From: Thainema sp.
GTDB taxonomy: Bacteria > Cyanobacteriota > Cyanobacteriia > Phormidesmidales > Phormidesmidaceae
Assembly: GCA_052168235.1 (NCBI GenBank)
Contig: JBQLZK010000001.1
Coordinates: 1-64,000, forward strand
DNA length: 64,000 bases
Reading direction: 5' to 3'
Positions 49,296-60,229 of the stretch are shown one piece after another (position 1 is the stretch's first letter; each line of letters opens with the position of its first letter). The notes below the pieces were generated by a model, which was not told the origin of the DNA, ran no database searches, and saw only the letters and a program-made list of their open reading frames with translations. Made by a program: the position numbers and the translations under genes.

Positions 49296-51359
49296 ATGCG
49301 TAGTATGAACGATTCCAATCTGCGATCGCTAACCAGCGCCATTCAGGATATTGCATCCCCGTTTCGGACGTACTTAGTGGATCTGCACGAGAAGTACCAG
49401 TCTTTCACCGAGGGTAAGCCTGCCAATCCGTTAGCCGGAATTGAACCACCCGCAGCCGACTTTTTTGGCGTGTGTATTGCCACGGTCGATGGTCAGGTGT
49501 ATGAGGTAGGCCACTGCCACCAGCCCTTTGCAATTCAAGCCCTGTCTCGTGCCCTGCTCTATGGCCTAGCACTGGAAGATCACGGACGAGAGCAGGTAAG
49601 TCACTACGTTGGCATCGAACCCTATCGCGAACTAGAAACGCTGATTGGGTTGAACAGCAATAAACATCGTCCCCATAACCCGCTGACGGACACTGGGGCA
49701 ATCGTGATTGCGGGATTGATCAAAGGTGACAGCTTGGTCAGTCGGTTTAAGCGGGTGATGGCGATGCTGAGCCGCTACGCCGGACGGGATATTTTGACCA
49801 GTCTGCCAGTTTTTCTCTCGCAAAAAGAGCAGGGTGAGCGGGAACAAGCGATCGCACATTTGATGGTGAAAATGGGGCTGGTGCAGCGCCCGATAACCGA
49901 TGTGCTCGACCTCTATTTTCAGTGCAGTTCGGTCATGGTTAACAGTCGCGACTTGGCGGTGATTGCGGCAACTCTGGCCAATGGCGGGTTGAATCCAGTT
50001 ACGGGAGAACGGGCCATTCAGGAACAGTACATTCAGGACGTAATTAGCGTTATCTTGACCTGCGGCATGCATGACTCGTCTGGGGAATGGACATATCAGG
50101 TTGGCATTCCCGCCCAGGCTGAACCGAATGGCGGCGTGATGGGAATCGTGCCCCAAAAGCAGGGAATTGGCATCTTTTCGCCTCGGCTGGATGACCACGG
50201 CAATAGCATTCGCGGCATGAAAGTCTGCCAGGATTTGGCCACCGATCACCATCTGCATGTGTTCAATATTTATGAAAAGAACCAGCAGATGGCGAAATAT
50301 ATCGAGCAGGTTGAAAAAATTACCGCTGCTGCGATCGCAGTTAAACAGGGCACGTTTGCGGCCAACAGTCTCGATAGCCTTGTCCAGCGTGCTGATGAGT
50401 TAGGCGAACTGGCGCGGGTGTTCACCAACATGGTGGAAACGATTCAGGCTCGCGAACAAGAGCTGAGTGCCGCCAATCGGCAGTTAGAGGCGCTTGTCAA
50501 TGCCTACGGGCGGTTTGTGCCCCATGAGTACCTAAAATTTCTGCATAAGGATAGCATCGTTGATGTCGATCTAGGCGACTACGTTAGTACCGAAATGGCG
50601 GTCATGTTCTCAGACATTCGCTCATTTACGGCACTGTCGGAATACATGACGCCGCAGGAAAGCTTTGACTTTATCAATGCCTATCTGGGGCACGTCGGCC
50701 CAGAAATTCACAGATATCACGGCATCACGATTAAGTATCTGGGAGATGGACTAATGGCCGTTTTCCCCAGTGGAGTGGATGATGCGATCGCAGCCGGACT
50801 GGCTAAGCTCAAGCGCTTGCAGGACTATAATCGGCAGCGCCAAGCGGCTGGTGAACCGTCCATCAACATCGGCATCGGCGTCCACGTTGGCCACATGATG
50901 ATTGGCATTATTGGCGAATCCAATCGGATGCAGGGCGATGCCTTTTCTGGCACGATTACGCTGACTGCGCGACTGGAAGGATTAACCAAATATTACGGGG
51001 TGCATCTTTTGGTCTCAGAAGACGCACTTAATCAGCTGCAGCGCCCAACCTACCAGTTTCGCTTTCTCGATCGCGCCATTGTCAAAGGCCGGACTGAACC
51101 CATCGGCGTTTATGAAGTGCTCAATGCTGAACCAGCGCCAATTCAGCAACTGAAGCAAGAAACAGCCACGCTATTTGATGAAGGGATTCAGCACTATTGC
51201 CAAGGCGACTTTGTCAAGGCCACTGCCTGTTTTAAGCAGGTTGTCACAATTAATCCGTTTGACCAAACCGCTCGGCTCTATCTCCATCGCATTCAGCAGT
51301 TGCAGGCAGAGGGTATTCCGAACAACTGGGCGGGTATTTGGACGTTTACCCAAAAATAA
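49296..51359 (+). CDS. Degenerate glutaminase domain + HAMP + class III adenylate/guanylate cyclase fusion
   Basis: Glutaminase fold motifs (ATLANGGLNP, TCGMxDxSG, SPRLDDHGNSIRG); HAMP (RADELGELARVFTNM); cyclase (FSDIRSFT, KYLGDG, GIGVHVG, ARLEGLTK, VKGR). Confidence 0.88.
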   Translation: MRSMNDSNLRSLTSAIQDIASPFRTYLVDLHEKYQSFTEGKPANPLAGIEPPAADFFGVCIATVDGQVYEVGHCHQPFAIQALSRALLYGLALEDHGREQVSHYVGIEPYRELETLIGLNSNKHRPHNPLTDTGAIVIAGLIKGDSLVSRFKRVMAMLSRYAGRDILTSLPVFLSQKEQGEREQAIAHLMVKMGLVQRPITDVLDLYFQCSSVMVNSRDLAVIAATLANGGLNPVTGERAIQEQYIQDVISVILTCGMHDSSGEWTYQVGIPAQAEPNGGVMGIVPQKQGIGIFSPRLDDHGNSIRGMKVCQDLATDHHLHVFNIYEKNQQMAKYIEQVEKITAAAIAVKQGTFAANSLDSLVQRADELGELARVFTNMVETIQAREQELSAANRQLEALVNAYGRFVPHEYLKFLHKDSIVDVDLGDYVSTEMAVMFSDIRSFTALSEYMTPQESFDFINAYLGHVGPEIHRYHGITIKYLGDGLMAVFPSGVDDAIAAGLAKLKRLQDYNRQRQAAGEPSINIGIGVHVGHMMIGIIGESNRMQGDAFSGTITLTARLEGLTKYYGVHLLVSEDALNQLQRPTYQFRFLDRAIVKGRTEPIGVYEVLNAEPAPIQQLKQETATLFDEGIQHYCQGDFVKATACFKQVVTINPFDQTARLYLHRIQQLQAEGIPNNWAGIWTFTQK

Positions 51360-53216: not shown

Positions 53217-53681
53217 ATGAATCAACCCTGGCAAGATCCGTTTATTATTCACCACACGCAGCGATTGCTCTACAGTTTTCAGCACTGGACAGGTCGGCCA
53301 CTGTTGGACGTTCAGGGTTCACCGCTTGAACTAGCTGAGCAGGTCTTTCACGCTCATCTGGCAGTTTTGTCTCACGGGACAGAAGCAGATCCGATTTTTA
53401 ACTATGGCAACCAGTTGGCGCTGCAAATTTGGGAGTTGACTTGGGCTGAATTTATCCAGATGCCATCCCGTAAAACTGCTGAAGTTGTTAATCAGGAAAC
53501 GCGATCGCAACTTCTCTCGACTGCCCAAAAGCAAGGTTATACCCCCTACTCGGGTGTTCGCATCTCCAGCACGGGCCGCCGCTTTCATATTGATGATGGC
53601 ATTCTCTGGAACGTGATTGACCCACAGGGCAATCTGCATGGCCAGGCGGCGATTTTCTCGCGTTACGAATATTTGCCGTAG
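53217..53681 (+). CDS. MEKHLA domain (PAS-like) protein
   Basis: SFQHWTG, SHGTEADPIFNYGN, MPSRKTAE, YSGVRISSTGRRF, GQAA. Confidence 0.92.
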   Translation: MNQPWQDPFIIHHTQRLLYSFQHWTGRPLLDVQGSPLELAEQVFHAHLAVLSHGTEADPIFNYGNQLALQIWELTWAEFIQMPSRKTAEVVNQETRSQLLSTAQKQGYTPYSGVRISSTGRRFHIDDGILWNVIDPQGNLHGQAAIFSRYEYLP

Positions 53682-58249: not shown

Positions 58250-59122
58250 CTAGCTCCGCAACTCAATTTCCGATACTAGACCGTAAACAACGTCTGGTGA
58301 CTGTACGGGAGATTCGGGCGGTATTACCGAGGGCCAAATCGTTTGCAGTTCATCCAGATTTTGCATAATCACAGCATGATCTTCTGGGCGAGTTTGGCTC
58401 ATCTCGTCCGCAATGGTTTGATAAAGCTGATCAGCGTACTGAACAAATCCGCGAGAATCTTGATATTCAATTGCTTCCACAATTTGGTTATCTACAATGG
58501 CCGCTTCATATTCCTCGGCAGCCGTACGCAGCGTGTTGACAATCACATCCATGACAAATTCGGGTGACTGTCGCTGTTCCTCTGGAATAGCTGCGATCGC
58601 ACGATCGATACTGGCCATTGAGGCTTGAAATTCTTCTTTCATCTGCGGGTCAGTGGGAGCTGACTTAGCCAAATCATGTAGCTCAGTCAAATCGCTCTTG
58701 AACTGCGGCACATTGCGCTCCGTCAGTTGACCTTCGATGCCGCCATACAGCTCCTCAACCGGGTGTCCAATGTGGGGTTCTGCTTCTGCGTAGCTACCTT
58801 CGTTAATCAGTTCCTCTGCAACGGACAGATGACCTTTCATCAGAGCTAGCGAAGTCATGTAGTCAACGTCTGGATTACCGGAGGCGCTGCCTTCGCCGCC
58901 TTCGCCACCTTCACCACCTTCACCGCCTTCGCCGCCTTCAGAGGCGTGACCTTCACCCCCCTCATGGCCCTCGCCACCTGCTGAGGCAACATCGGTTGTC
59001 TGAGCTGAATCAGATGTCTCTCCAGCTTCGCCTCCTTCCGTTGAAGCACTACCACACGCACTGACTGTTGCCGCTAAACCAAGGGCAAGAAAGAGTTCAA
59101 CTGCTTTTAACTGTTTGGCCAT
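58250..59122 (-). CDS. Acidic lipoprotein with GGE/His repeats, putative metal-binding
   Basis: Lipobox VSAC; GGEGHEGGEGH...(GGE)n; HIGHPVEELY; EYQDSRGF. Confidence 0.75.
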   Translation of the reverse strand: MAKQLKAVELFLALGLAATVSACGSASTEGGEAGETSDSAQTTDVASAGGEGHEGGEGHASEGGEGGEGGEGGEGGEGSASGNPDVDYMTSLALMKGHLSVAEELINEGSYAEAEPHIGHPVEELYGGIEGQLTERNVPQFKSDLTELHDLAKSAPTDPQMKEEFQASMASIDRAIAAIPEEQRQSPEFVMDVIVNTLRTAAEEYEAAIVDNQIVEAIEYQDSRGFVQYADQLYQTIADEMSQTRPEDHAVIMQNLDELQTIWPSVIPPESPVQSPDVVYGLVSEIELRS

Positions 59123-59128
59123 GACACT

Positions 59129-59143
59129 TGAGAATCACTTTCA
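59129..59143. promoter_or_regulatory. Fur-box-like 7-1-7 palindrome
   Basis: TGAGAAT-C-ACTTTCA, 6 nt upstream of the lipoprotein start codon. Confidence 0.45.
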
Positions 59144-59209
59144 TTTAATGAGCTTGGTGACGAGCTTATGATTATTAGAAATAACTGTCAATAGATAACG
59201 CGAAAAAGT

Positions 59210-60229
59210 TTAGCTCGGTATGACATCAAAAAATCCCATACAGCCATGTTCTGCGATTTCATCCTGATGGGGATGGAACATGTATTTGCCAGGATATTTA
59301 TAGGAAAATTCGAGGATGTGGCGCTCAGCAGTGCCCATTGTGATCACGTCGGAGTCCATAGTAGGACTGAGAACGCGACCTGTGGGATAGATCTGGAACA
59401 TATTGGCGTGAATGTGAAAGGTGACGGCTGCATCAAACTCAATCATATTCAGCAGATACAGCCGAATTCTCTGATGCTGATAAATCGGAATTGCATGGTC
59501 GCGATAGTAGTTAGGAATACCGTTGAACGCGTACAGTTCATTGTGACCATCATTATTGATATCGAAACCGCCCATCACCAGCACCATCTCATCGGCAGGT
59601 GGGCGCTCCTGGGGCGGATCGACAATAAACAGGCCATACAGCCCCTTGCTGATGTGCCGCGTAACGGGGGCAATGTGACAATGATAGGGATGTACCCCGA
59701 ATGGCTCCGCATCAAACTCGTAGACTTTGGTATTGCCATGCCGCACCGGATCAACCCCGTCCATTTCGACGGGATGAGTGCCGTGAAAATGCATGCTATG
59801 CGAGTGGCCATCTTCATTGTGAAAGATAATGCGCACTCGTTCTCCCGCTTTCGCTCGCAGGGTTGGCCCTGGTACCCGACCATTGAGATTCCAGCTCACA
59901 AACGGGATGACGCTGTTAAGCTGAAGTTTTGAACTATTGGCCGTAACCTCAAACTCCCGCACGGTGCGACCTTGTTCATGCCGGATTGTGCCATGATCAA
60001 ACTCTCGCAGCACTGCCATTGGGTCAAAAGGGTTGTCAGCAGGAGCCGTGTAGTTCTCGGGTAAAGGGGGAATCCGTACGGGCTGAGTTGAATTGCCAGA
60101 GAGCCACTTGGATCGTACAGCCACAGAAGAAGCTGCCACCAACCCAATGCTCGCCGCGCCATAGCCCAAAAGTCGGCGGCGAGACCAGAGCAGTTTGCCT
60201 GATTTGGATTTGGGTAGTCGCTCAGTCAT
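59210..60229 (-). CDS. Two-domain multicopper oxidase (Tat signal)
   Basis: SRRRLL, HSMHFH, YHCH...H, FHIH, FHPH. Confidence 0.92.
   Translation of the reverse strand: MTERLPKSKSGKLLWSRRRLLGYGAASIGLVAASSVAVRSKWLSGNSTQPVRIPPLPENYTAPADNPFDPMAVLREFDHGTIRHEQGRTVREFEVTANSSKLQLNSVIPFVSWNLNGRVPGPTLRAKAGERVRIIFHNEDGHSHSMHFHGTHPVEMDGVDPVRHGNTKVYEFDAEPFGVHPYHCHIAPVTRHISKGLYGLFIVDPPQERPPADEMVLVMGGFDINNDGHNELYAFNGIPNYYRDHAIPIYQHQRIRLYLLNMIEFDAAVTFHIHANMFQIYPTGRVLSPTMDSDVITMGTAERHILEFSYKYPGKYMFHPHQDEIAEHGCMGFFDVIPS

Follow-up and report, generated by a model that had tools for sequence, protein, structure and literature searches.

A dismantled glutaminase-fold domain in the input position of a cyanobacterial HAMP-class III cyclase fusion

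The stretch of Thainema sp. DNA analysed here (64,000 nucleotides, hereafter the window) encodes a protein in which a glutaminase-fold domain with a rewritten active site is joined through a HAMP linker to a class III cyclase and a TPR-like tail. The domain, referred to below as the dead domain, probably provides some kind of regulatory input to the cAMP output. The arrangement, a pseudo-enzyme as input to an otherwise familiar type of signaling protein, is apparently undescribed: literature searches across full texts of articles, mostly non-subscription and excluding supplements, returned no description of a glutaminase-derived input domain, in agreement with the preliminary description of this DNA, which knew of no characterised protein with such an architecture. 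One-component cyclases themselves are common.

Results

The fusion is real and rare

A single open frame joins the glutaminase, HAMP and class III cyclase domains, as the preliminary description had claimed, and Pfam scanning recovered all three (Table 1). The true start is probably Met4 (49305), giving a protein of 684 aa, because homologues align from this residue and cluster members have that length. No transmembrane segment was found in the protein, again as initially described; the highest 19-residue hydropathy is 1.39 and lies within the cyclase. The proposed domain-architecture search was run at the protein level and retrieved eight further full-length fusions, 52 to 96% identical to this copy, and all relatives with names are cyanobacterial. 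An independent contig, ~91% identical, covers the entire ORF and both domain junctions unbroken, with a compensating indel pair as the only one inside; a break at a junction, which the preliminary description had listed against its own reading, is thus not seen there. Collectively, the glutaminase-HAMP-cyclase fusion is confirmed as a real gene. Searching the atlas with the full-length protein gave nothing beyond generic cyclase clusters. Contigs from RNA-library runs cover the ORF in three of four runs, which does not imply transcription because such contigs can originate from DNA.

The module occurs in 2 of the 173 genomes of the host's own family and in 4 of the 401 genomes sampled across the class (only four candidates scored per genome), which limits its reach, and was not found among 400 other genomes of the phylum.

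Table 1. Features of the fusion gene, with window positions
Feature	Positions	Strand	Basis
Whole ORF, 687 aa from the first ATG	49296..51359	+	Open for 687 codons
Catalytically dead glutaminase-fold domain, residues 4-324	49305..50267	+	Pfam PF04960 Glutaminase, residues 48-323, E 7e-88; model
Q-A-L-S-R: Ala82 for nucleophile Ser (S286), Arg85 for general-base Lys (K289)	49536..49550	+	
Asp132 at the N335 position; in the family Asp 5/30, Thr 17, Asn 6	49689..49691	+	
Gln176 (E381 position; Gln 5/30) and Glu183 (N388 position; Glu/Asp 27/30)	49821..49844	+	
Tyr207 (Y414), the sole substrate-contacting residue retained family-wide (29/30)	49914..49916	+	
His259 for the third triad residue, Tyr466	50070..50072	+	
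Q-A-E-P for K-S-G-V; Gln274 (K481 position) in 27/30	50115..50126	+	
Connector helix into HAMP, residues 325-388	50268..50459	+	Pfam HAMP, residues 339-384, 25.0 bits (exactly the cut-off)
Coiled coil and cyclase transducer element YGRFVP (residues 404-409)	50460..50591	+	
Class III cyclase; Asp440, Asp484, Lys480, Asp548 and Arg559 kept	50592..51101	+	Pfam Guanylate_cyc, residues 433-602, E 9e-19, 68.3 bits (cut-off 21.9)
Thr555 for transition-state Asn	50958..50960	+	Alignment of cyclase homologues
Three-helix TPR-like tail ending in conserved W-x-G-x-W-x-F-x-Q-K	51135..51356	+	

The glutaminase fold is kept and its active site dismantled

Structure prediction, which had been proposed at the outset, was run on residues 1-405 with 117 sequences and yielded an intact glutaminase fold (pLDDT 93) that matches solved glutaminases with Z scores of 41 to 43 and an rmsd of ~2 Å over ~300 residues. 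We mapped the motif positions by alignment to human GLS (S286/K289, N335, E381/N388, Y466, and K481-V484). In the human enzyme, S286, K289, and Y466 are described as the catalytic triad needed for activity, Y249, Q285, N335, E381, N388, Y414, and V484 as contacts of the substrate, and Ala mutants of Y249, S286, K289, and Y466 as suffering a large loss of activity (PMC4929687; PMC13218152). The motifs QALSR, NPLTDTGA, SQKEQGERE, CGMHD, and PAQAEP are all present as quoted in the preliminary description, and its view that the fold motifs are kept while the active site is rewritten is borne out by alignment and model alike. Specifically, the Ser-x-x-Lys dyad and Tyr466 of active glutaminases are absent, with A82, R85, and H259 in their place, and only Q81 and Y207 remain of the substrate-binding set, i.e., 2 of 10 pocket residues. 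The score against the NCBIfam glutaminase A model TIGR03814 (242.9 bits) falls below the cut-off of 255.4, which P0044, another altered protein, passes despite its Lys>Arg change. Judged from the predicted structure and the aligned residues, the dead domain has kept the glutaminase fold and lost its chemistry. In databases they carry the names "glutaminase" or "glutaminase/class 3 adenylate cyclase" for this protein family; the label "glutaminase" is a misannotation.

Loss is family-wide, under purifying selection

Searches with the fusion junction and with a shorter relative uncovered tail-form proteins, in which a coiled-coil tail takes the place of the cyclase. The resulting set of altered glutaminase-HAMP proteins comprises 30 distinct sequences, 9 with a cyclase output and 21 with the tail (P0044, P0049, P0069, P0123, a subset of P0297-P0363, L024:6682-7998, and L028:6047-7363). 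Leptolyngbya boryana has a gene of the tail form. The short tail carries the motif L-x-I-E-I-D ... V-A-E-I-V, belongs to no Pfam family, and follows many other inputs. As a comparison set we used 42 active paralogues (matches of 335 to 346 aa), every one of which is canonical at all 13 positions read. The K289 position is Arg in 30/30 glutaminase-HAMP proteins and Lys in 42/42 active paralogues. Decay is therefore not confined to this copy among homologues that retain SxxK, the outcome that the preliminary description had named as fatal to its reading, since none of the 30 keeps the Lys. Ser is retained at the Ser286 position in 14/30 and Tyr at the Tyr466 position in 15/30. Pocket positions are kept in 1 of 10 cases versus 116 of 222 for the other conserved positions (Fisher p 0.01; 30 sequences), and the same test on 15 sequences gave 1/10 versus 104/186 (p 0.006); residue loss, as far as the alignments go, is concentrated at the active site.

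Conservation of the pocket residues themselves, for which a check had been suggested, proved divided: four cleft positions hold fixed residues, some new and some retained, in 27 to 30 of the 30 proteins, whereas seven of the ten substrate-contacting positions vary freely. The lid loop keeps 1 of 13 conserved positions and the activation loop 6 of 15 (30 sequences); such eroded loops, together with the freely varying contacts, do not resemble a pocket that serves a single ligand across the family. The N>D and E>Q swaps, taken initially as hints of a ligand other than glutamine, occur in only 5/30 each and are no family trait, and for this reason, and given the seven free contacts, they do not imply one shared new ligand. 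On the 30-sequence counts, N>D, E>Q, and N>E together were likewise rejected as a ligand signature common to the family. The Asp/Gln pair at the N335 and E381 positions is common to this copy and the early-branching P0044, P0049, and P0303, and may be ancestral.

The dN/dS analysis called for in the preliminary description was done by the Nei-Gojobori method. Between this genome (G000) and G001, the two closest, the dead domain has a dN/dS of 0.038, compared with 0.029 in the cyclase and 0.024 in the active paralogue. Three further pairs gave 0.040 to 0.048 for the dead domain, rough values given a dS near 2.3, and one recently split tail-form pair gave 0.36 at low divergence. The dead glutaminase domain is under purifying selection. 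As a separate observation, dS between the G000 copy and G001 is uneven along the gene (dead domain 0.32, cyclase 0.57, tail 1.6; compare 0.79 for the parent glutaminase and 1.16 for MinD), and the gene downstream of the fusion also differs between this genome and G001; recombination near the 3′ end of the fusion gene is possible.

The dead domain sits in the input position of a HAMP cassette

In the predicted structure, one unbroken helix (325-351) runs from the dead domain into HAMP, followed by helices 356-363 and 368-404, so that two HAMP helices with a connector lie between input and output, albeit with a Pfam score just at the cut-off. The transducer element that follows reads YGRFVP, against a published FGRY motif (PMC5995499). 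HAMP-to-transducer spacing is 37 residues in this copy and 30 in the other fusions, and one or the other of these values, a heptad apart, was found in 45/45 of those proteins from the protein-level search that bear both motifs. Work on engineered cyclases describes linker register as relevant for coupling (PMC5995499).

The output half resembles that of cyanobacterial receiver-HAMP-adenylyl cyclase-TPR proteins (P0066 type), to which residues 333-687 align at 61% identity with one gap, which indicates that the dead domain replaces the receiver. The two kinds of protein differ in that the input here is enzyme-derived and in that this copy carries Thr instead of the transition-state Asn. In its tail form, the HAMP cassette also follows receiver, ECF S-component, dCache, Tll0287, and cNMP domains. 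At the level of aligned domain orders, the dead domain is shown to occupy the input slot of this cassette.

The metal, base-specifying, and Arg residues and the transducer motif are shared with other one-component class III cyclases that have a transducer element. The metal-binding Asp pair (D440, D484) and the adenine-specifying K480 and D548 are present and, along with R559, point to ATP as the substrate, the Lys/Asp rule for adenine specificity in class III cyclases being documented (PMC4215837). From what is known of the family, the protein would be a soluble dimer using ATP, as specified by Lys480/Asp548. The first reading took the cyclase to be intact, but one transition-state residue is missing from this copy. 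Of the transition-state Asn-Arg pair, which is usual but not universal, R559 is kept and Asn is replaced by Thr555, a change confined among the nine fusions to this copy and its sister. Across 74 homologues the position holds Asn in 62, including the other seven fusions, and Thr in 12, on several branches. Thr-type cyanobacterial cyclases (P0038, P0039, P0041-P0043, P0047, P0058, P0068, P0070, and P0077) often have Gly or Ser three residues before. Asn and Arg are reportedly both essential in a mammalian cyclase, and Thr555 may lower activity. By analogy, the cyclase is nonetheless likely, but not certain, to be active, because Ma1120, which has Ala here, is described as an active enzyme (PMC4215837).

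The TPR-like tail stood in part. Three helices are predicted at residues 614-672 (from a first structure model on 9 sequences, with a pLDDT of 44, used for the tail only) and homologues give sub-threshold TPR matches, but this protein has no Pfam TPR match at E 0.001.

The dead domain derives from a cyanobacterial glutaminase

In quick trees of glutaminase domains (51 and 40 rows), the altered domains form one clade (support 99 to 100) beside or within the cyanobacterial glutaminase group, and the dead domain is 50% identical to the intact glutaminase of the same genome. A cyanobacterial glutaminase is thereby shown, on phylogenetic grounds, as the source of the dead domain. Tail forms whose sites are the most intact branch earliest, which suggests that fusion to HAMP preceded full loss of the active site. 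Two of them, P0044 and P0049, retain Ser286, Tyr249, Tyr414, Tyr466, and Lys481, and the family thus preserves a graded series, from a near-intact site to a fully dismantled one, that makes the transition from enzyme to sensor testable.

The glutaminase-domain tree requires a minimum of two output changes, but a single cyclase clade is not rejected on it (p 0.12). In trees of the cyclase, this copy separates from the other seven fusions, and a 7-residue insert also distinguishes them. With the cyclase groups named after the first tree had been viewed, AU tests rejected a one-origin constraint when P0098 was included (p 3e-5; 30 of 74 rows) and did not reject it when P0098 was removed (p 0.27 and 0.14). 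Two independent cyclase fusions are suggested by these trees.

Comparison with known glutaminases and sensors

Serine-dependent glutaminases (human GLS/GLS2, Bacillus YbgJ, E. coli YbaS, and Micrococcus Mglu; PF04960) have the same fold, but in this protein the Ser-Lys-Tyr triad is replaced and the domain is fused to HAMP. The fold is also that of the beta-lactamase/penicillin-binding superfamily, to which the sensor domains of BlaR1 and MecR1 belong (Z 14.1 and 14.5), so this superfamily fold can serve as a sensor. In BlaR1 and MecR1, the sensor domain is the extracellular part of a membrane protein, retains the SxxK serine, and signals once acylated; an acylated sensor domain is named in the title of entry 2iwc. 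In contrast, the protein described here is soluble, with no hydrophobic segment that could anchor it in a membrane, has Ala82 for the acylatable serine, and outputs via HAMP to a cyclase.

Loss of the catalytic Lys is not exclusive to this clade: it is absent in 47 of 303 other glutaminase domains, a count that includes the clade member P0123 and one unaligned row. The degenerate domains of tandem double glutaminases also lose it, but mostly by Lys>Asn, and none was seen attached to this HAMP cassette; our literature search found no study of them. These tandem proteins (P0010-P0090; 640 to 700 aa) have one altered half and come in two types, one with E381>K/R in the first half and a second half devoid of the lid Tyr, the other with K289>N and Y466>N/H in the second half. 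Stand-alone glutaminase-fold proteins with dismantled sites and no second Pfam domain were also observed (P0165, P0169, and P0173; 343 to 362 aa).

A candidate sensor of cAMP signaling and its alternatives

The dead domain likely serves as a sensor rather than as an enzyme, because its catalytic residues are lost and yet it is strongly selected and joined by HAMP to a cAMP-making domain. The reading that we favor, with a probability of roughly 0.4, is that the input is a small molecule. It would bind the remodelled cleft, where Arg85, Glu183, Tyr207, and Gln274 would line the putative ligand site, and the signal would pass through the HAMP coiled coil and tune cAMP synthesis. We chose this reading because four cleft residues are fixed across the 30 sequences and the slot usually holds sensing domains. 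Glutamine bound in the usual pose is unlikely in this copy, given that both carboxylate-binding Asn positions are acidic here. Against a ligand in the cleft stand the freely varying contacts and the eroded loops, and Arg85 and Glu183 could simply pair as ions inside the site and plug it. The claim that the enzyme domain was repurposed as a ligand-binding or interaction module is supported in part, by the dismantled site, purifying selection, and location in the input slot, and not by the N>D/E>Q swaps. Metabolite sensing, if true, would make this a further family of sensor domains and would connect nitrogen metabolism directly to cAMP in cyanobacteria. A fuller version seems improbable to us: a new class of cytoplasmic metabolite receptor, made from a duplicated cyanobacterial glutaminase by stepwise loss of catalysis, whose site, its charge inverted by acidic residues at the former contacts of the substrate carboxylate, reports a nitrogen-rich amine to cAMP or to the coiled-coil tail, and to which a cyclase was joined twice independently.

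Input from a protein partner is nearly as likely as metabolite sensing, although doubtful in itself. Here, a pseudo-enzyme with a plugged cleft that binds nothing would dock on the active glutaminase paralogue, or on another partner such as the MinD-like ATPase of the parent gene cluster, and would relay the state of that partner to the cyclase. Glutaminases are described as conserved dimers of dimers or tetramers (PMC8130709), and segment 243-270 of the dead domain, with the equivalent of H461, a monomer-monomer contact in the human enzyme (PMC13218152), keeps 17 of 23 conserved positions. However, this segment is partly buried core, and the helix of the human GLS dimer-dimer contacts keeps only 5 of 12 positions. 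A second, ordinary-type glutaminase was matched in 8/8 genomes checked (one match being a contig-end fragment, and active-site residues having been read for part of them) against a background of 52 of 172 host-family genomes with a strong glutaminase match, but such co-occurrence is expected after duplication and the kin are not independent. Moreover, the fusion gene is not adjacent to the active glutaminase gene, and the best paralogue in genome G732 shares only 65% identity with the parent type.

That the dead domain is a structural scaffold, which merely dimerises and clamps the HAMP-cyclase at fixed activity with no input at all, is unlikely. Preservation of the core, the N-terminal helix, and the C-terminal strands while pocket and loops erode would fit this role. 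The four cleft positions fixed in 27 to 30 of the 30 proteins speak against it, as do the sensing nature of the other occupants of the slot and the retention of the domain in the 21 tail forms, whose tail is not an enzyme and would gain little from a 320-residue spacer.

We give still less credit to a cyclase made weak or silent in this lineage by Thr555, with signaling through pairing with another cyclase or a partner. The Asn>Thr change in this copy and its sister, at a position where the other seven fusions keep Asn, favors such a loss, but both metal Asp, Lys480, Asp548, and Arg559 are all kept, Thr recurs on several branches (12/74 homologues), the cyclase dN/dS is as low as 0.029, and in Ma1120 an Ala here does not prevent activity (PMC4215837).

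It is very improbable that the domain is still an enzyme, slow or with altered amidase activity; the near-intact residues of P0044 and P0049 would allow it there, but this protein has neither the Ser nucleophile nor any other triad residue, and Ser is kept in only 14/30. An assembly chimera or a decaying gene, which the rarity of the fusion in the host's own family might evoke, is refuted by nine distinct full-length fusions, the independent contig spanning both junctions, and dN/dS near 0.04.

Genomic context

No conserved gene neighborhood pointing to a ligand was found around the fusion, and a conserved operon was rejected, the neighbors differing among G001, L025, L026, L027, and L029. Upstream of the fusion there is no exact GTA-N8-TAC, which we take as the NtcA-type consensus; its eight matches in the window all lie elsewhere. 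Promoter and terminator scans at the fusion gave no more than chance. A gene presumably encoding a glutamine synthetase-like protein precedes the P0003 fusion on the same strand (L029:4138-8083), an arrangement not seen at other fusion loci.

The parent-type intact glutaminase adjoins a MinD/ParA-like ATPase gene in 19 of 25 loci. In this genome (G000:C20:79533-83747; L032), the intact glutaminase lies at C20:81800-82831 and the MinD-like ATPase at C20:82989-83747, followed by a dCache-HAMP-PAS protein ending in the same coiled-coil tail as the tail forms, and the embedding of an active glutaminase in a signaling cluster is itself unexplained. At L021:10024-14028 (G012), a 711-aa glutaminase with what we take to be EF-hand- and ankyrin-like segments lies next to the MinD-glutaminase cluster, which a presumed ammonium-transporter-like gene also adjoins. 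As for the tail forms, one lies 8 kb from a MinD-like gene (L108) and another is head to head with a gene cluster (L098:9199-19278; G732) whose members we presume to be an anion transporter, a cNMP-domain protein, a MinD-like ATPase, an anti-sigma kinase, STAS proteins, and a HAMP-phosphatase. Elsewhere in the window, positions 53217-53681 (+) encode a stand-alone MEKHLA domain protein, and an ORF at 58250-60229 (-) with E-G-G-E repeats, presumably lipoprotein-like, lies downstream of what we take to be a multicopper-oxidase-like gene.
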